Shown: positions 10,492 to 29,824, counted from the first letter of the stretch. The stretch: DNA of 64,000 bases from Acidobacteriota bacterium (GCA_019347945.1 JAHWKK010000001.1:67299-131298); one strand, 5' to 3'. The notes: generated by a model not told the origin, from the letters alone. Program-made: numbers and translations.

Positions 10492-12189
10492 TCAGAAGGT
10501 CACTGTGACGCTGTTCGAGCAGGTCGAGGTTCCTGCTTCACAGATCTGGTACGTCAGCGAGCCGCCTCCGACGAAGTTGGTCGCATCGGTGTACGCTCCG
10601 TCGTTCGCCGTCGTCGCAATCACCGATCCGTCGCGGTACACGTCCACATTCGTGGAGCTCGCTCCGCTCCAGCTCAGATCAGTATGCCAGCGGCCTTTCA
10701 CCTTGTATCCGGTGGCCGAGAGCGAGATGCCGTCGGTCGAGCAGCCTTCGTCGACCGAACCGTCGCAGTCGTTGTCGATGCCGTCGCCACAGACCTCGGT
10801 CTCGCCAGGGTTCACGCCCGCGTTGCTGTCGTCGCAGTCGCCATCCTCGGCGCACCATCCGTCACCGTCGGCGTCCGTGCAGGTCGAGCAGCCTTCGTCG
10901 ACCGAACCGTCGCAATCATTGTCGATGTTGTCGCCGCAAACTTCCGACGCGCCTGGATTGACGCTCGCATCATTGTCGTCGCAATCATCGCTGGCGCAGT
11001 AGCCGTCACCATCCGCATCCGTGCAACCGCTTCCGCCGTCGAAGAGGGTGTACAAAAGGTGGTTGTTGGTCGTGCTGGACGAAGTGACGATGTTCTTAGT
11101 GGTCGCGTTGTAGAGCGCATCGCGAACCGTCTGCGGAGAGGCGCCGGAATTCGCGTCGAGATAAAGCGCCGCAGCTCCCGCCACATGCGGAGCGGCCATC
11201 GAGGTTCCACTGATCGTGTTCGTGTCGCTGTCGCTGTCGATCCAGGCCGATGTGATGCTCACACCAGGCGCGAAGAAATCGACGCAGTCGCCATAGTTCG
11301 CCCAGGAGGCTTTCTTATCGGAGCTGTCTGTGGCGCTGATCGTCATCGCTTCCGGAACGCGGGCTGGCGAGTAGTTGCATGCGTCCTGCTGGATCCCGAG
11401 GAAGTTGCCGTTTCCGGCCGCGATGGCGTAACTCACGCCCGCCGCGATCGAGTTGCTCACCGCGCTGTCGAGCGAGTCGGACGCGCCGCCGCCGAGACTC
11501 ATGTTCGCCACGGCCGGCTTGATGTGATTCGCGGTCACCCAGTCGACTCCCGCGATGACGCCCGAGACCGTGCCGCTTCCCTGGCAGTCGAGAACGCGAA
11601 CGGCGATCAGCTTCACGCTTTTCGCCACGCCCCAGGTCGATCCACCGACGGTTCCGGCCACGTGCGTACCATGACCGTTGCAGTCATCGGCCGTTCCGCC
11701 GTCAATCGCGTCGAAACCGCTGACGGCCCGGCCCCCGAAGTCATTGTGCGTGGTACGGATTCCGGTGTCGATGATGTAAGCATTCACCCCGGAGCCGGTG
11801 TGATTGTAGGTATAGCTGCCGTCGAGCGGGAGGTTTCGCTGATCCACACGGTCCAGCCCCCAGGTCGCATTCGACTGGGTCGCGACGACGCGAACCATCG
11901 AGTCCTGTTCCACGTATGCGACTCGAGGATCGGCAGCCATTTTCTCCGCCATCTCTGCGGACAGGCGTATCGAAAAACCCTTGATCGCCGATGAGTAAAT
12001 ATAGCCGATCGTTCCGGCGTGGGTGGAAGCCAGCGCTCTGGCCTCGGCTGCCGGATTCGCGACGTCGTCGTTGAACACGACGATGTACTGGCCCGGAATT
12101 GGATTTTCTGTCTGCCGGACGTCCGGACTACCGAGTACCGAGAACGCCATCAGACAACATATTGCCGCTACAAACAGGTTTCGCTTCAT
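10492..12189 (-). CDS. Secreted subtilisin-like serine protease (S8, proteinase-K-like) with an I9 propeptide and C-terminal Cys/Asp-rich repeats.
   Basis: The signal peptide is MKRNLFVAAICCLMAFSVLGSP. The catalytic triad context is D (AYIIDTGI), H (HGTHVAGT) and S (GTSMAAPHVAG). The C-terminus has two 50-aa repeats, CTDADGDG[YW]C...VNPG..EVCGD.IDNDCDGSVDEGC. Confidence 0.9.
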   Translation of the reverse strand: MKRNLFVAAICCLMAFSVLGSPDVRQTENPIPGQYIVVFNDDVANPAAEARALASTHAGTIGYIYSSAIKGFSIRLSAEMAEKMAADPRVAYVEQDSMVRVVATQSNATWGLDRVDQRNLPLDGSYTYNHTGSGVNAYIIDTGIRTTHNDFGGRAVSGFDAIDGGTADDCNGHGTHVAGTVGGSTWGVAKSVKLIAVRVLDCQGSGTVSGVIAGVDWVTANHIKPAVANMSLGGGASDSLDSAVSNSIAAGVSYAIAAGNGNFLGIQQDACNYSPARVPEAMTISATDSSDKKASWANYGDCVDFFAPGVSITSAWIDSDSDTNTISGTSMAAPHVAGAAALYLDANSGASPQTVRDALYNATTKNIVTSSSTTNNHLLYTLFDGGSGCTDADGDGYCASDDCDDNDASVNPGASEVCGDNIDNDCDGSVDEGCSTCTDADGDGWCAEDGDCDDSNAGVNPGETEVCGDGIDNDCDGSVDEGCSTDGISLSATGYKVKGRWHTDLSWSGASSTNVDVYRDGSVIATTANDGAYTDATNFVGGGSLTYQICEAGTSTCSNSVTVTF

Positions 12190-14655: not shown

Positions 14656-14985
14656 TCAGGCCGTCTCTCTGGACTCGAGGGGATATCCCTTTTCCACCCA
14701 GGCGTCGTATCCACCTCGCAATGCGTGCACGTTCGAGAATCCCTTGTCGATCATCTTTTGCGCCAGACTGGCGCTCGAGCCTTCGCCCGGTCACGTGCAG
14801 TAGGTGACGATCGGGCGGTCTTTCGGGAGCTCGTCGATGTGGTTCTCGAGCTCGTTCGCCGGAACTCTCACGGCTCCGGGAACCTTCTTCGTCGCTTTGC
14901 TCCAGGCCTCTGGATTTCTCGCGTCGACGAAGAGGGCGTCATCCAGGTTGCGGGCTTGTTCTGGCTCGATTCTCAACTCGCTCAC
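14656..14985 (-). CDS. Single-domain rhodanese sulfurtransferase with an in-frame TGA in the active-site loop, a candidate selenoprotein.
   Basis: The translation is MSELRIEPEQARNLDDALFVDARNPEAWSKATKKVPGAVRVPANELENHIDELPKDRPIVTYCT-[TGA 14791-14793]-PGEGSSASLAQKMIDKGFSNVHALRGGYDAWVEKGYPLESRETA*. Read through, the TGA aligns without gaps onto the GlpE active site, C65-YHGNSS-KGAAQYLLQQGY...GGFEAW. Positions equivalent to plus-strand first codon positions show about 74% GC, which supports coding in this frame. Confidence 0.55.
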
Positions 14986-16335: not shown

Positions 16336-17087
16336 GTCGTCGGATACCATGTTTATTGATTGGAGCACCGGCGCGAACGCGTAGAGATGAGGAGTTCTGA
16401 TCGCAGCGGGCTTGCCTCGGATCACCCTACAAGAGCTGTGCTTGGTTGGGGTAGAAAGCCATTGCGAAAGAATGTTCAGATGCCGTTAAAGCGGAACGAA
16501 GTCGAGTGATCGAAGCTGAATGCTGACGCGGTGCTGCCGTACGAGCTGCGGCTCGACGACTTCGTAATCGCGATGCAGGACGTGTGCGACTTTTTCTAAG
16601 ATGTGAATACCGGGGTTCTGGAAAAAGCGCTAGAGCGCTTTGATGACATGCTGCGGCCGCAGAACATGTCGGGCATATCTCGGACATGTTGACTGCAAGC
16701 ATGGCGAGCCACTCGCGGTCCCTGACCCAGAACCAGCAACACAACGGCCATCCGGATCTACTGGTCAAAGGTGTGTATCCGGGCAATGCGGCACGGGCGG
16801 GCTCAGAAGGAGTGGAGATCAAGACCACACGCAAAAAAGGCGGTGCCGTCGATACGCACGGAGCACGGGATCAGTGGATGTGCGTGTTCGTTTACGAAGT
16901 CGACAACAAAACTGAGCCGGCGCGTAATCGGGAACCGATGACCGTCACAGAGGCCTATCTTTGCCAGGTCTGTGTGGCGGACTTTCGAAAGAACCCACGT
17001 AGTGAGCTCGGTACAAGAACAGCAACCCTTCACAAGGAAGGCGTTGCTCGGCTTCGGGAGAACTGGATCTACATGCTGAACAGGTAG
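16336..17087 (+). pseudogene. Decayed PD-(D/E)xK restriction endonuclease, cognate to the adjacent methyltransferase.
   Basis: One reading frame gives protein-like segments, ...AVLPYELRLDDFVIAMQDVCDFF and DVNTGVLEKALERFDDMLRPQNMSGISRT. They are interrupted by a TGA at 16507 and a TAA at 16597. A frameshift around 16670-16690 then leads into an intact 133-aa ORF (16686-17087) that carries HPDLLV...EGVEIK, a PD...ExK motif. GC content falls to about 55% here. It is convergent with the methyltransferase and overlaps it by 19 nt. Confidence 0.45.
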
Positions 17088-18271
17088 CCGCTGTTCGCTC
17101 CGCCGTTCTTGTACTTGATGAGTTTCGGAATCGCTTTGACAGCGAGGTCGAAGTAGCGCGGATCCTTCTCGATGCCGATGCTGCGGTAGCCGACGGCTTC
17201 CGCCGCGGCAAGCGTTGATCCTGAGCCGGCGAACGTATCGAGGATGATGCCTTCGCCGAGCGGAAGCACACCACGAATGAGAGTCCGCAGGAACATCTGC
17301 GGCTTGAGGCTCGGATGCGGCGCCAAATCCTTCTCCTTCTTGTGGGTCGGCGATGACGGGATCACGTCGCCGAACGGCTTGTCAGGTGACGGCCTTCGAA
17401 ATCCTCCCGTCGACCACCTGCGCAGGTTGTCCTGCACGCGACCGTCGATAGGTTTCCGGAAGACGAGCCACGGCTCCCACATCGAGCGCGGCATGACCGA
17501 GACCCCGAAGAACTCGTCGTGAGCCGCCTTCGGGCGATCGCCGCCACGCATCGTCATCACGAGTCGCGCGATCTCTCCGCGCCGCTCGAGTCCCGCTCGT
17601 GCGAGAGCACCTGAGATGACGTAGGAGAGAAGCGGGTTGCTGGCGACTACCACGTTCGCGCCAGGCACGAGAACCGGCAGGAGCGCCTGGCCCCAATCGA
17701 AGAAGAACTTCCCGAGCTGCTCGACATCGTTCTCCGACAGTACCGTGAAGCGGGGGAGGGGAGAGCGCTTGCTGCCATCGAAACTAGGCGGGATCCGCCA
17801 AACACCACCCTTACCATTTCGCAGTTTCTCTTGTTGTGCCGGTTGGTACTCGATGAGCCCGTAAGGTGGATCCGTAACGACCGCGTGGATCGTGTTCGCC
17901 CGTTGCTCCGCGAGCCACTCGAAACAGTCCGTTTGGACGAGCGTGGACGATCGGAACTTGCTCGTCCGGAATTCCCCCCATGCAGGATCGGGATTGTCTC
18001 CATACTCTTCCGCGTGCTGATCCCCGATGGTGTAGATCCCGCGATCTTCGCGCTCGAACAGCTCCCCCAGGTTGAGCCGGAGATAGGATCGGATGCTCGA
18101 GGACGGGATGTCGCCGATGAGACCCTTGACTCCATCTTCGATCTCGGCGACAGATGCTCGCTTCTTAGAAGAGAGAACGGTTATGATCGCGTCCCGTATC
18201 TCGCCGGGCCGGCGACGCTGTTGCTTGGGTTTGCCCGGGGTCTTCTTCGACCGGCGGGATGAGGAGGGCAT
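17069..18271 (-). CDS. Beta-class DNA methyltransferase (N6-adenine/N4-cytosine) with an N-terminal winged-helix-like domain.
   Basis: Motif IV DPPY (AVVTDPPYGLIE) precedes motif I FxGxG (ILDTFAGSGSTLAAAEAVGYRSIGIEKDPRYF). That order defines the beta class. Confidence 0.9.
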   Translation of the reverse strand: MPSSSRRSKKTPGKPKQQRRRPGEIRDAIITVLSSKKRASVAEIEDGVKGLIGDIPSSSIRSYLRLNLGELFEREDRGIYTIGDQHAEEYGDNPDPAWGEFRTSKFRSSTLVQTDCFEWLAEQRANTIHAVVTDPPYGLIEYQPAQQEKLRNGKGGVWRIPPSFDGSKRSPLPRFTVLSENDVEQLGKFFFDWGQALLPVLVPGANVVVASNPLLSYVISGALARAGLERRGEIARLVMTMRGGDRPKAAHDEFFGVSVMPRSMWEPWLVFRKPIDGRVQDNLRRWSTGGFRRPSPDKPFGDVIPSSPTHKKEKDLAPHPSLKPQMFLRTLIRGVLPLGEGIILDTFAGSGSTLAAAEAVGYRSIGIEKDPRYFDLAVKAIPKLIKYKNGGANSGYLFSM

Positions 18272-25225: not shown

Positions 25226-27394
25226 TCAGGCCGTCGAATGATGCGGGATGTTGAGCACGAGGACGGGGCAGGGGGCGTTCTCGAGGACGTGTTCGATCTT
25301 GGGCCCGAGGAAGAGCCGCTGCGTGCCGGCCTGGACGTCCGACCCGAGGATGATCAGATCGACGTCTCGCCGCTTGGCCAGATCGAGAATGACTCGTTCG
25401 GGATCCCGCCCGACGCGTACCTCGACGTCGGTCCGGATGTTCTGAGCCTCGCCCAGCTCCTCGAGTTGGGTGACGATCTGTCGGGCGTTACCGAACTGAC
25501 GCGTGAAGAGGGTGCTGTCGGGGTCGAGGGAGGCGAGACTCTCCTGCCGGGCGACGACGTTGAGCAGAGTGACGATGTCCTGCTCAGCGTGTGCGATTGC
25601 AAAGGAAAGCTCGGCAGCGCGGCGGGCTGCCATCGACCCGTTGGTCGGAACCAGAATCCGCTCCGGCGACCAGTCGGTGAAATGGCGGCTTCCCGACTGA
25701 ACCACGAGAGTCGGGCATGGGCTCACCCGGACGAGGTAATCGACCAGGGGGTTGAAGAGGACCTGGGACCGGTCCGCTTCCTCGGAAGCTCCGAGCACCA
25801 TCAGATCGAAGCCTCTCGCCGCCTCGTCGAGAATGATCTCGGAAGGAGAGGACCCTTCGACGACCCGCTCGATCAGATCGATCTCGGGGAACAGCTCGCT
25901 GACGCGATCGAGGAACTCCATGCCCTTCGCCTTCTCGCCGCTGCGCGTCACCGTCAGCAGCGTGAGCTCGATCTCATTCTCTTTCGAGAGCCGGGCGAGT
26001 ACCTCTGCTTCCACACGATAAGTCAGCGATGTCGTGTCGCGGAGGCGGATCGGGAGAAGGACGCGATGAATCCGGGCGATCAGACTCGCCTCGGTGCGTT
26101 CCTCACGGGTGAGCCGGTCGAGCTCTTCTGCGCTCGGCTCGACATGGCGGAGTACCCATCGGAGAGCTGAAGGGGCGAGCATCGCGTTGGTCATCGCCAT
26201 CAGGACGATGATCGCGAACATGTCCGGCGAAAAGACCTCCAGGGAAAGCCCGATCGTCGCGATGATGATGTCCATCGCGCCGCGAGTATTGAGCCCCGCC
26301 GCGAATGCGAGGGAGTGCCAGTGGTCCTTTCGACCGATGAAGCGGGCGCCGACATAGGCGCCGACTCCCTTTCCGAACACCGTTGCACCGATGACGGCGC
26401 CGGCAGCTCCCAGCATCGAGGGATTCGACAGATCGGCGAGATTCACCTTCAGCCCCGCCACCGCGAAAAAGATCGGAGCGAAGACGCCGAGCGCGATGCT
26501 CTCGAGCTTTTCCGTGGTCTCCGCAGAGAGTCGTCGCATCTGGCGCAGCACGATTCCGATGACGAACGCGCCGAGAACCGCCTCGAGATGAATCGCCTGC
26601 GCGATCGCTCCCCAGGCGAACATCAGGACGACGACGAGCGTCAGAAAACGGTCTGCGCCCGAGACGTGGTCACCGACGAGATCGATCAGCTTGCGAACGA
26701 TGATGCGACCAAGGAAAAAGCTCAGCACCAGGAACAGCAGAACGCCCCCGGCGCTCTGCACGACACTCGTGAGCCCGATGCCATGCCCTGCCGCGAGACC
26801 CGCGACGACCGAAAGTATGATCCAGCCGATCGTGTCGTCACTCATGCCCGCGGCGATCAGAGTCTGACCGATGTCGCGTCGAATGAGACCTAGGTCGATG
26901 ACCACTTTGGCGATGACCGCAATTGCCGAGATCGACATCGCCGTTCCGAGAAAAAGGGCGAACACCGTTCGCTGGTCCGGGTTCGCGAGCAGAAAATCGG
27001 GAAGCTGCGTCCCGACCAGATAGCCCGTGGTGAAGGTCAGAGCAATCCCGCAAAGGGAGACGCCGAAGGCGGTTCGCGCATGCCTTCGGATCAGCGAGAG
27101 GTCGGTCTCGATGCCGGTGATGAGCATCAGAAACATCGCGCCGATCAGACTGATGACCTCGAGCAGATAGCCCTGAACATCCGTCTGCGGAATGATCCAG
27201 ATTCCGAACGCGGGGATCACCGAGCTCAGCAGCGAGGGTCCCAGAACGATGCCGGCGAGGATCTCGCCGACGACTGCCGGCTGTCCGAGCTTTTTCGACA
27301 CCTCGCCCAACGCCCGTGCCGTGAACAGCAGCACTGCGATCTGAAGAACGAGCTTCAGGATGTCCGCGTGAGGTGCAGCCGTGAAAGTTTCCAT
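25226..27394 (-). CDS. CPA2-family cation:proton antiporter fused to tandem universal stress protein (UspA) domains.
   Basis: The N-terminal roughly 400 aa are polytopic and Kef/NhaP-like (GEILAGIVLGPSLL). The C-terminus has two Usp-like modules, ILVPTNGS...ELSFAIA and PCPVLVL. Confidence 0.85.
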   Translation of the reverse strand: METFTAAPHADILKLVLQIAVLLFTARALGEVSKKLGQPAVVGEILAGIVLGPSLLSSVIPAFGIWIIPQTDVQGYLLEVISLIGAMFLMLITGIETDLSLIRRHARTAFGVSLCGIALTFTTGYLVGTQLPDFLLANPDQRTVFALFLGTAMSISAIAVIAKVVIDLGLIRRDIGQTLIAAGMSDDTIGWIILSVVAGLAAGHGIGLTSVVQSAGGVLLFLVLSFFLGRIIVRKLIDLVGDHVSGADRFLTLVVVLMFAWGAIAQAIHLEAVLGAFVIGIVLRQMRRLSAETTEKLESIALGVFAPIFFAVAGLKVNLADLSNPSMLGAAGAVIGATVFGKGVGAYVGARFIGRKDHWHSLAFAAGLNTRGAMDIIIATIGLSLEVFSPDMFAIIVLMAMTNAMLAPSALRWVLRHVEPSAEELDRLTREERTEASLIARIHRVLLPIRLRDTTSLTYRVEAEVLARLSKENEIELTLLTVTRSGEKAKGMEFLDRVSELFPEIDLIERVVEGSSPSEIILDEAARGFDLMVLGASEEADRSQVLFNPLVDYLVRVSPCPTLVVQSGSRHFTDWSPERILVPTNGSMAARRAAELSFAIAHAEQDIVTLLNVVARQESLASLDPDSTLFTRQFGNARQIVTQLEELGEAQNIRTDVEVRVGRDPERVILDLAKRRDVDLIILGSDVQAGTQRLFLGPKIEHVLENAPCPVLVLNIPHHSTA

Positions 27395-27411: not shown

Positions 27412-27855
27412 TCAGCCGCCGGTCGACCGGGCTTCGGTCTCTGCGACGACGGTGCCGATATGGCCGGCGATGTCGTTTCCGGAGTGAACCGCCCGGATCT
27501 TCTTATCACGCCGGATGTAAAAGGTGACCCTTCGAGCCAGACCCAGCAGCGGAATGCCCACCCCGTAGTCACTGATCACGCTGCCGCCGCGATCCCCGAC
27601 GAGCGGATATGGAAGATCGAGGCTTCGCGCGAAGGCGTCGCTCTTTTTCTGTCTGTCGTTGGACACACCAACGACGGCGACACCGACCTTCTTCAGCTCT
27701 TGGTAGATCCGGCGAAACTCGCCGGCCTCGAGCGTTCAGCCGGGTGTAAACGCCTTCGGAAAGAAGAAGACTGCGACGTCGCTGGTCTCGAGCAGCGCAT
27801 GCAGCCGGGTCTCGGCGATCTCGAAGTCGGGCGCCTCGTCACCTCGTTTGAGCAT
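27412..27855 (-). CDS. bcp: Bcp-type 1-Cys peroxiredoxin with TGA in place of the peroxidatic Cys codon, a candidate selenoprotein.
   Basis: The translation is MLKRGDEAPDFEIAETRLHALLETSDVAVFFFPKAFTPG-[TGA 27736-27738]-TLEAGEFRRIYQELKKVGVAVVGVSNDRQKKSDAFARSLDLPYPLVGDRGGSVISDYGV... It aligns colinearly with E. coli Bcp, YPKAMTPGCTVQACGLRDNMDELKKAGVDVLGISTDKPEKLSRF, and the TGA falls exactly on the peroxidatic Cys. The ORF track splits this gene into two fragments, 27736-27999 and 27412-27666. Confidence 0.6.
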
Positions 27856-29824
27856 GGATCGCTTCCTCTCCGCGAATGTGCCGGATGAACGGATCGTTGC
27901 TGATGGGGCGGCCCAGAAACGCTTCGACCGAATCCATCCCCGGGCGCTCCGCTCCCCGGGCCAGAATCTCGTTGCGAAACCTGCGACCGGTTTCTGCATC
28001 CATGAGATCGTCGCCGAAGGCGCTCAGCAGATCGTAGGCGATGGCTTCGGACCAGAGGTAACCGTAATAGCCGGCAGCATAGCCGCCTGCGAGATGACCG
28101 AAGGAGGCGGGAAACCGGGTTTGATCGACGTAGCCGAGAGGAGTCTGCCCCTCCATCTCGGACCAGACATCGCCCGAGGGGGCCGGCGCCGGACCGGAGA
28201 GCCGCATGTCGAATGTTGCGTAGAGGTGCTGTCGGGCATAGTGAACTCCTCGTCCGAGCGACCGCGCGCCGTCGAGGCGCTCGATCAACTCCTGGCTCAC
28301 CCGCGGAGCATGCGGAGCCACCTCGGAAAGGACGGCGAATCCCGCGGGCCGGCGCGCCCACCACTCGAACATCTGCGAAGGGGCTTCGACGAAGTCGCGC
28401 TCGACGCTCGTCCCGGCGTGGTGAACGAACCAGGTCTCGGACAGAACGCCATGAAGGACGTGACCCATCTCGTGAAAGAGGGTCTCCACTTCGGAATGAG
28501 TCAGCCCGCGCCTCTCGAAATTGGCCACGAGAACGCTGATCGGAGTCCGGCCGATCCGCCGGGCAGAGCCGCGCAGTGGCCACGCCGCAGCGTGCTTGAA
28601 TTTCCCCTCTCGCGGGAAAAGGTCGAGGTAGATCGTTCCGATGAAGCCGTGATCCCGCTCGTCATGGAGGTCGTAGGCGATCACGTCCGCCTCCCACAGC
28701 GGCGCGTCGACTCTCTCGAAGCGGACTCCGTAGAGTCTTCGAGCGGTCTCGATGACCCAGTTCACCGACTCCAGCGTCGGAAAATACTGTCGGGTCTCTT
28801 CCTGATCGACATCGTAGACGCGCTTGCGAAGACGCTCGGTGAAGTAGGGGAGATCCCAGCGGTGAAGTTCCACCTCCGCGGGGCTCGCCCGCTCCTGTCT
28901 GGCCATCTCCAGCCGGATCTCGTCGAGATCGGCTTTCTCGCGTTGCCGTACCTGAGCGAATACTTCTTCCAGAAAACGCCTGACCGCCTCGGGCGTCCGG
29001 GCCATTCGTCTGCGAATGACGTGGTCCGCGAACGAAGGTAGCGAGTAGATGTCCGCGAGCTCGGCTCTGAGGCTCGTGAGCTCGTCGAGGATCTCGAGAT
29101 TTCGCTGACCGCCGCGCTGGTGAAACGCCATGTAGAGCCTGCGACGTGCGTCGGCATTGCCGACGTTCATCATGAAGGGGTGATAGTCGGGATAGTCGAG
29201 ACCGACGAGCACCTTGTCACCGTCCTGCTCGAGCCGATCGATAATCACCGGTGGAAGGCCGGCGACCTCCTCTCGACTGAAGGAAAGTTTTGGTGATTCC
29301 TCCCGGATGTTGCGGGCGAATTCCTGCTCGAGCTCGGAAGAGCGGGCGACGATCTCCCGGATTCTCTCGCGACGATCGGCCGGCAGATGAGCTCCATTGT
29401 CCTCGAACTCTTCGAGAAGATCCCGTCGAAGCTTCCGGGAGACGTCGGTCGAGGGATCGGACCGGTCGACGAGCTCGAAGAGCTTCTGGTTCTGAAAAAT
29501 GTCGTTGATGAACGATGCGTATCTGATCAGCGCATCCTCGGCAACCCTCCGGACCTCGGGAGACGGATGAACCTCGGAAAACAGCGACGCCGGGCCGAAG
29601 GCGTCCTCGAGCTCGACCTCGAGATCATCCCAGAGATCGAGGATCTCGGATGGTTCTGCACTTTCGATCTTCGCGACGCGGGCGCGACCATCCGAGAGAG
29701 AGCTTTCGCACAGCCGCGCGAGTGCTGTCGCGTCCGGAATCGGAACTCTCGGCCGCGTGTCGATGGATTCGTTCACAATGGTCATTTTGCCCGATTGTGT
29801 GCCACCTTCCGGCGTAATGTCCAC
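27839..29824 (-). CDS. M3-family zinc metallopeptidase, oligopeptidase A/Dcp-like.
   Basis: HEMGHVLH is the HExxH zinc motif. The protein is about 660 aa and M3 folds align along the whole length. Its 3' end overlaps the bcp start by 17 nt. Confidence 0.9.
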   Translation of the reverse strand: MDITPEGGTQSGKMTIVNESIDTRPRVPIPDATALARLCESSLSDGRARVAKIESAEPSEILDLWDDLEVELEDAFGPASLFSEVHPSPEVRRVAEDALIRYASFINDIFQNQKLFELVDRSDPSTDVSRKLRRDLLEEFEDNGAHLPADRRERIREIVARSSELEQEFARNIREESPKLSFSREEVAGLPPVIIDRLEQDGDKVLVGLDYPDYHPFMMNVGNADARRRLYMAFHQRGGQRNLEILDELTSLRAELADIYSLPSFADHVIRRRMARTPEAVRRFLEEVFAQVRQREKADLDEIRLEMARQERASPAEVELHRWDLPYFTERLRKRVYDVDQEETRQYFPTLESVNWVIETARRLYGVRFERVDAPLWEADVIAYDLHDERDHGFIGTIYLDLFPREGKFKHAAAWPLRGSARRIGRTPISVLVANFERRGLTHSEVETLFHEMGHVLHGVLSETWFVHHAGTSVERDFVEAPSQMFEWWARRPAGFAVLSEVAPHAPRVSQELIERLDGARSLGRGVHYARQHLYATFDMRLSGPAPAPSGDVWSEMEGQTPLGYVDQTRFPASFGHLAGGYAAGYYGYLWSEAIAYDLLSAFGDDLMDAETGRRFRNEILARGAERPGMDSVEAFLGRPISNDPFIRHIRGEEAIHAQTR

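Follow-up and report, generated by a model that had tools for sequence, protein, structure and literature searches.

A predicted selenocysteine-containing Bcp/PrxQ-type peroxiredoxin with an in-frame UGA at the peroxidatic position in an Acidobacteriota genome

Introduction

Among bacterial selenoproteins, Prx (COG1225/Bcp, PF00578, TxxU) is a well-established family (PMC1794560, PMC1088965, PMC9312934, PMC13188914). It ranks among the most widespread selenoprotein families in genomes (PMC1794560, PMC5029168), and recent reviews give it as experimentally supported (PMC9312934, PMC13188914). Recognition of the family goes back to the early selenoproteome surveys of prokaryotes and to PrxU of Eubacterium acidaminophilum (Soehling et al. 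2001, cited in PMC9312934). Cysteine (Cys) homologues of Prx (TxxU) are widespread, and the interleaving of selenocysteine (Sec) and Cys forms has been described (PMC1794560; PMC1088965; PMC9312934; PMC13188914). Sec use is also documented in Acidobacteria/Acidobacteriota (PMC1794560, PMC12013277).

In this study, we analysed a stretch of 64,000 nucleotides from an Acidobacteriota bacterium (GCA_019347945.1, JAHWKK010000001.1:67299-131298), hereafter the window. A reading of the sequence alone had proposed that a Bcp-type peroxiredoxin gene in this window carries TGA at the codon of its peroxidatic Cys, followed by a hairpin resembling a selenocysteine insertion sequence (SECIS). Our analysis supports this interpretation. 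We conclude, with a probability of roughly 0.9, that the locus is a functional selenoprotein gene whose UGA at codon 40 would be read as Sec. Judged by its sequence, the gene displays every feature by which members of the Prx (TxxU) selenoprotein family are recognised.

Results

The peroxiredoxin gene, of the Bcp/PrxQ type, occupies positions 27412..27855 of the minus strand, with its ATG at 27855 and a TGA stop at 27414-27412, and encodes 146 amino acids. Translation of the frame (27855..27412, 147 codons with the stop) shows a sole internal stop at codon 40, a TGA at 27736..27738 of the same strand. The frame reads MLKRGDEAPDFEIAETRLHALLETSDVAVFFFPKAFTPG up to this codon and TLEAGEFRRIYQ after it, ending in STGG before the terminal stop, and the residues that flank the internal stop are FFFPKAFTPG and TLEAGEF. 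The start is shared with the homologues, which begin with the same MLKxGD. Hence, the gene is a single continuous frame free of frameshifts, as originally claimed.

With C in place of the internal stop in the query, the Pfam domain AhpC-TSA (PF00578) spans the TGA, covering residues 5-122 (E=1.8e-27, 96 bits, cutoff 26). The TGA (27738-27736) falls on the peroxidatic-Cys position of the PxxxTxxC motif, and the alignment places the predicted Sec codon in the arrangement P33-x3-T37-x2-U40. By sequence alignment, the closest solved structures are BCP/PrxQ proteins (5epf, 5enu, 3drn and 3gkk). In this alignment the TGA coincides with the catalytic Cys of 5epf and 5enu in TPGCT, which bears out the proposal that it replaces the peroxidatic Cys of the TPG-C-T motif of Bcp. 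P33, T37 and R109 align with the remaining active-site residues of the solved proteins, R109 being the Arg of 'KRTTF' in 5epf. The best NCBIfam model is the Bcp-type thiol peroxidase, the equivalog model for E. coli Bcp (NF006960), which gave 70.3 bits, under its cutoff of 140, and we therefore assign the protein to Bcp/PrxQ at the subfamily level only. A resolving Cys had been predicted to be missing, and the translation agrees: position +5 relative to the TGA is Gly, and the whole protein is free of Cys. On this evidence the predicted protein is of the 1-Cys/1-Sec type and lacks the second Cys of an atypical 2-Cys mechanism.

Public and mechanical annotations present this gene in pieces. The mechanical ORF list divides it into 27736-27999 and 27412-27666, the same split that had been pointed out beforehand, and the GenBank entry (MBW3563165.1) is a 98-aa C-terminal 'peroxiredoxin family protein'. 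The annotation could be taken at face value, with the locus making a 39-aa N-terminal peptide and a separate, internally initiated C-terminal protein; this is exactly what the gene callers predict. However, the C-terminal piece would be devoid of the active site (P33, T37 and residue 40) and of the first beta-strands of the thioredoxin fold. Moreover, the internal starts are not conserved, with called fragments of 84, 87, 94 and 98 aa. We give the two-product explanation a very slim chance, and favour translation through the UGA as Sec.

Related loci were collected by a genome scan with one genome per species, which yielded at least 40 loci, and by a metagenome scan that added at least 74 more, mostly from soil. 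Among the listed related loci, the codon in question is TGA in 77, TGC in 29 and TGT in 5 (77/111 TGA, 34/111 Cys), a ratio that is no estimate of abundance because the scans were seeded with peptide patterns. TGA and TGC/TGT thus occupy the same alignment column. The TGA loci come mostly from metagenome-assembled genomes (MAGs) of Acidobacteriota/Vicinamibacteria and from soil metagenomes, and their frames are intact on both sides of the codon. All 15 of the closest among the listed genome matches (Acidobacteriota/Vicinamibacteria MAGs, 47-60% identity) have TGA there, and beyond it their frames stay open to a normal length. In homologues that are more distant (Sorangium, Heimdallarchaeota and others) the codon is one for Cys, and the full-length database homologues at 50-58% identity were confirmed at the DNA level to be true TGC forms. 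By nearest-neighbour identity, Sec and Cys forms are interleaved.

The nearest relative, L001, stems from an independent sequencing run (SRR34348016), which is also the source of the closest database protein, a 94-aa C-terminal fragment. At about 94% nucleotide identity, L001 shares the TGA, an identical hairpin and the gene order with the window. The bare presence of the in-frame TGA is all that speaks for an error of sequencing or assembly, or for a variant code that assigns an amino acid to TGA (table 4 or 25). Independent read sets and assemblies concur on this TGA, so that a base-call error is excluded. Furthermore, TGA is the stop of 36 of the 45 predicted window genes, including the peroxiredoxin gene itself and its upstream neighbour; the genetic code is therefore the standard one, and a variant code was rejected. 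The G+C content of the genome, 62%, is also unlike that of the known TGA-recoding lineages. Altogether, an error or a variant code has next to no chance of being correct, and the TGA is best taken as a genuine codon that is read as Sec.

The part of the gene that lies 3' of the TGA is under purifying selection, as indicated by the codon changes between the window and L001, which are mostly synonymous there (16 synonymous and 8 non-synonymous). The frame is intact in every complete Sec-form locus. Many of the 76 complete Sec forms have a Cys elsewhere, either at +98, near the C-terminus, in the context EACA (55/76) or at +19 in the context SGCE (31/76). We regard these two positions as candidate resolving residues. 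Only five of the 76 Sec forms are Cys-free, namely the window protein, L001, L015, L083 and L096.

Two further observations concern the wider distribution of such genes. One Acidobacteriota MAG contig (CAVPGH010000001.1) has two Sec-peroxiredoxin paralogues, L007 and L011, which lie about 2.4 Mb apart and both show the TGA and the hairpin. In addition, TGA was found at the peroxidatic position of three distant peroxiredoxins, from a Korobacteraceae MAG (L041), a Polyangia MAG (L034) and a metagenome (L114). Their flanks differ, with NWTPV-[TGA]-T in L041 and FTYG-[TGA]-N in L034, and so do the downstream hairpins of all three. From these differences, they look like separate Sec-Prx lineages.

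The SECIS-like hairpin is located at 27709..27725 on the minus strand. It is 17 nt long and begins 10 nt 3' of the UGA, with CCGGCG (27725-27720) pairing with CGCCGG (27714-27709). The position is as originally predicted, including an apical loop about 18 nt from the UGA. In the computed fold an A-U pair closes the loop, so that the G+C-rich stem has 7 bp (27725-27719 with 27715-27709, CCGGCGA/UCGCCGG) and the loop is GUU (27718-27716), the G of which lies 18 nt past the UGA. The fold of this single sequence is only modestly significant (z=-2.1, with 4 of 200 shuffles as stable), and the significance of the hairpin hence derives from the comparison with relatives.

For this comparison, 59 distinct Sec-form sequences were aligned gap-free from the UGA. 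The loop (G21-U22-U23) and the stem pairs 18-26 and 19-25 are invariant. Standard pairs occupy 92.7% of the cells, compared with 30-56% when the 3' partner is slid by 1-3 columns. Changes on both sides of a pair occur in three of the seven pairs (15 cells), from C-G to A-U or U-A, from G-C to C-G, and between G-C and A-U at the closing pair. None of 500 shuffles reaches the observed covariation score, which has to be read in the light of two invariant pairs, few independent events and a confounding coding constraint. Indeed, each pair joins the third position of one codon to the second position of another and much of the stem is invariant, so that the pairing follows in part from the conserved peptide and the preference for G+C-rich codons. 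Among the Cys forms, close ones whose peptide is similar still show 5-7 of the 7 pairs.

Sec and Cys forms were also compared with each other. Their mean local minimum free energies (MFE) were -17.8 and -10.2 kcal/mol, respectively, but the Cys set behind the latter value included low-G+C archaeal forms, and we therefore replaced this comparison by a pair count in the same register, in which the Cys forms were restricted to a similarly high G+C content. At least six of the seven pairs are present in 46 of 51 distinct Sec forms, as against 4 of 25 high-G+C Cys forms (Fisher p=2e-10). The peptide AG[EG]FRR is kept in 44 of the 51 Sec forms and in 2 of the 25 Cys forms. In these alignments, the hairpin is conserved specifically in the UGA forms, as is expected if an RNA element restricts the coding sequence only where a UGA has to be recoded.

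The 7-bp/GUU hairpin is complete in one TGC form, L065 (Ga0210377_10035849), which also encodes EAGGFRR and shares 74% identity with a Sec form. In L065 the hairpin may be the remnant ('fossil') of a SECIS after a recent switch from Sec to Cys.

A covariance-model search for a SECIS, which had been suggested as a check, did not bear out the prediction: no Rfam SECIS family matched, either in the whole window at the gathering score or in the two UGA regions of the window at E<=10, and only chance snoRNA-like matches were returned. This null result carries little weight, given how short and lineage-specific the SECIS elements of bacteria are.

The data on relatives and on the hairpin bear directly on whether the locus is a pseudogene, that is, a Cys-peroxiredoxin lost to a TGC-to-TGA nonsense mutation, with the hairpin as a by-product of G+C-rich codons. 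Such a mutation is a single-base change, GenBank holds only a 98-aa fragment, and the single-sequence fold is of modest significance. Against this, the TGA is found in 77 listed loci that span about 50-93% identity at the protein level, and in these loci the halves before and after it are intact and conserved; homologues that end at the TGA as truncated genes were looked for, and the homologues instead continue in frame. The changes 3' of the TGA are mostly synonymous, and the hairpin and the peptide it encodes are kept in the TGA forms and relaxed in the Cys forms. This conservation already effectively refutes a pseudogene, which we consider very improbable. A functional gene with a UGA decoded as Sec accounts for the same data.

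A scan of the window for other coding frames with one TGA interruption revealed a single-domain rhodanese gene (14656..14985, minus strand), which is separate from the peroxiredoxin locus and lies 13 kb from it. Its frame of 109 codons reads IVTYCT-[TGA]-PGEGSS around the UGA (14793-14791), corresponding to the predicted CxU form TYCT-U-PG, and the Pfam Rhodanese domain spans the TGA. The best NCBIfam model, NF041203 'rhodanese-related (seleno)protein', gave 102.4 bits, under its cutoff of 115, over profile positions 35-126 of 126, with C-T-[UGA] present. Full-length Cys homologues read TYCTCP, and the called proteins of several relatives end exactly at TYCT; in two of the latter, L127 and L128, the frame continues after the TGA. 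A hairpin, GCGCCA-GUC-UGGCGC, lies at 14760..14774 on the minus strand, with 16 nt between the UGA and the stem; nt 20 is the first of the stem when the U is numbered 1. L127 has kept this hairpin, and in L128 it is one pair shorter with a GUU loop. The CxU rhodanese is a form listed in selenoprotein reviews (PMC9312934, PMC13188914). In GenBank, the gene is represented by a 64-aa 'hypothetical protein KY459_00335'. The other in-frame TGA junctions in the window that were considered under a GC3 filter proved to be adjacent same-frame genes or non-coding frames, and only the rhodanese was real.

Since two unrelated genes within 64 kb show the same signature, the organism very likely decodes Sec. 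ARAGORN found no tRNA of any kind in the 64-kb window and no tRNA-Sec in 119 fetched loci (0.93 Mb in total). Pfam searches of 20 of the larger ORFs and tblastn with E. coli SelA, SelB and SelD retrieved no selA, selB or selD from the window, and tblastn of the same three proteins against all fetched loci returned only GTPase-domain matches in Sorangium loci. Searches with the genes at the window edges led only to short Logan contigs of the same sample, which added no useful sequence.

The UGA might, in principle, be read through as an amino acid other than Sec, by near-cognate insertion of Trp or Cys or by Cys carried on tRNA(Sec) at low selenium, which would yield a thiol or an inactive peroxiredoxin. 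DNA does not reveal the chemistry of incorporation, and the Sec machinery was not found within the window. Nevertheless, Cys codons are the only ones with which the UGA alternates at the catalytic position, the SECIS-type hairpin that follows it at the canonical distance has a GU loop that is conserved, and the window contains another gene, also of a known selenoprotein family, with the same signature. Trp at the peroxidatic position would, moreover, give an inactive enzyme. We therefore consider read-through without Sec unlikely, and insertion of Sec at codon 40 remains our preferred explanation.

The peroxiredoxin gene is flanked on the same strand by an upstream gene for an M3-family Zn oligopeptidase (27839..29824; MBW3563166.1) and a downstream gene (25226..27394; MBW3563164.1) whose product combines a CPA2 cation:proton antiporter with Usp domains in one protein. 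The original prediction had stated that the peroxiredoxin gene overlaps the M3 peptidase gene at the latter's 3' end and is co-transcribed with it. The overlap is there and amounts to 17 nt. A Shine-Dalgarno-like sequence, GGAGAGGAAG (27862..27871, minus strand), can be read 6 nt 5' of the ATG, within the 3' end of the peptidase gene, and the antiporter gene begins 17 nt past the peroxiredoxin stop. The overlap, this sequence and the short gap together suggest co-transcription; the gene is probably co-transcribed with the oligopeptidase and possibly with the antiporter. The order of the three genes is kept only in the two closest relatives, L001 and L003, and the remaining relatives examined have neighbours other than an M3 peptidase and a CPA2-Usp antiporter. 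The overlap thus stands as claimed, and co-transcription stays at the level of a probable arrangement. Elsewhere in the window, two ordinary-looking genes of the minus strand encode a subtilase with two MopE-type putative Cu-binding motifs (10492-12189) and a stand-alone N6/N4 DNA methylase (17069-18271).

Discussion

The results of our study point to a peroxiredoxin gene that is translated through an internal UGA. The 17-nt hairpin located 10 nt 3' of the UGA would act as a bacterial SECIS. By analogy with the mechanism in E. coli and Moorella, it would recruit SelB·GTP·Sec-tRNA(Sec) to a ribosome that has stalled on this codon. The predicted protein, a Bcp/PrxQ-type peroxiredoxin of 146 aa, has P33...T37..U40 and R109 as its active site. 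If it follows general peroxiredoxin chemistry, T37 and R109 would activate the selenolate of U40, which would attack the peroxide and be converted into a selenenic acid. An external thiol, such as thioredoxin, glutaredoxin or a small thiol, would then reduce the selenenic acid directly, making the protein a '1-Sec' enzyme; such recycling by an external partner is proposed because the protein has neither a resolving Cys nor any other Cys.

Both predicted selenoproteins of the window are truncated in the public record, and dozens of related genes from Acidobacteriota and soil metagenomes are split likewise. With the genes called correctly, the antioxidant enzyme is recovered in full and the organism is recognised as one that uses selenium. 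Our findings also lend further support to the view that soil Acidobacteriota commonly have Sec-peroxiredoxins. They leave the knowledge of Sec decoding and of peroxiredoxin chemistry unchanged, and their main value lies in the correction of the annotation and in the pointer to a populous Sec-PrxQ clade in soil Acidobacteriota.

A broader and more tentative interpretation is that the window gene represents a large, mostly unannotated clade in soil Acidobacteriota (Vicinamibacteria and relatives), whose members would be PrxQ peroxidases that depend on Sec. We see this as a possibility that is rather less than even. Within this putative clade, Sec forms appear to outnumber Cys forms, and the compact 17-nt putative SECIS may fix the downstream peptide as AG[EG]FRR. 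Under the same interpretation, some members, including the window protein, would have lost every Cys and would therefore depend on an external reductant. If true, selenium would be a routine need for peroxide defence in abundant aerobic soil bacteria.

Comparison with known systems places the locus within described biology. Relative to Cys-type BCP/PrxQ proteins (E. coli Bcp, NF006960; 5epf, 5enu, 3gkk and 3drn), the fold and the P, T, catalytic and Arg positions align, whereas the window protein has a predicted Sec in place of Cys and, at +5, a Gly where 5epf has its resolving Cys. The hairpin, in turn, resembles bacterial SECIS elements of the E. coli fdhF type and the bSECISearch consensus, which has a small apical loop with a G shortly after the UGA, in its location within the ORF, its G+C-rich stem and its small loop starting with GU. 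It differs from them in having no bulged U, a loop of 3 nt instead of 4 nt and no match in Rfam, and its SECIS role is putative. In E. coli, a minimal upper stem-loop of 17 nt at about 11 nt from the UGA is reported to suffice (Liu et al. 1998). The window hairpin has the same length as that minimal element.

The experimentally characterised PrxU of Eubacterium acidaminophilum shares with the window protein the replacement of the peroxidatic Cys by Sec. PrxU is also reported to lack a second redox Cys (Soehling et al. 2001). It is, however, a longer AhpC/Prx1-like protein of about 200-230 aa, and the 146-aa window protein is of the BCP/PrxQ type, a different subfamily. Membership in PrxU (NCBIfam NF040737) was rejected at 32.6 bits against a cutoff of 270.

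The closest match is the Prx (TxxU) family itself, as defined in the surveys of Kryukov, Zhang and Gladyshev: the domain, the TxxU motif, the Sec predicted at the peroxidatic position and the presence of a hairpin after the UGA are shared. The interleaving of Sec and Cys forms among the relatives of the window gene also matches the pattern described for this family (PMC1794560). What sets the locus apart is that its sub-clade comes from soil genomes of the Acidobacteriota/Vicinamibacteria type, that the window protein is Cys-free, and that it is only 50-60% identical to anything beyond its near-strain relatives. The Sec-Prx family has been known for about 20 years and is abundant in bacteria, and the window gene adds one member to it.
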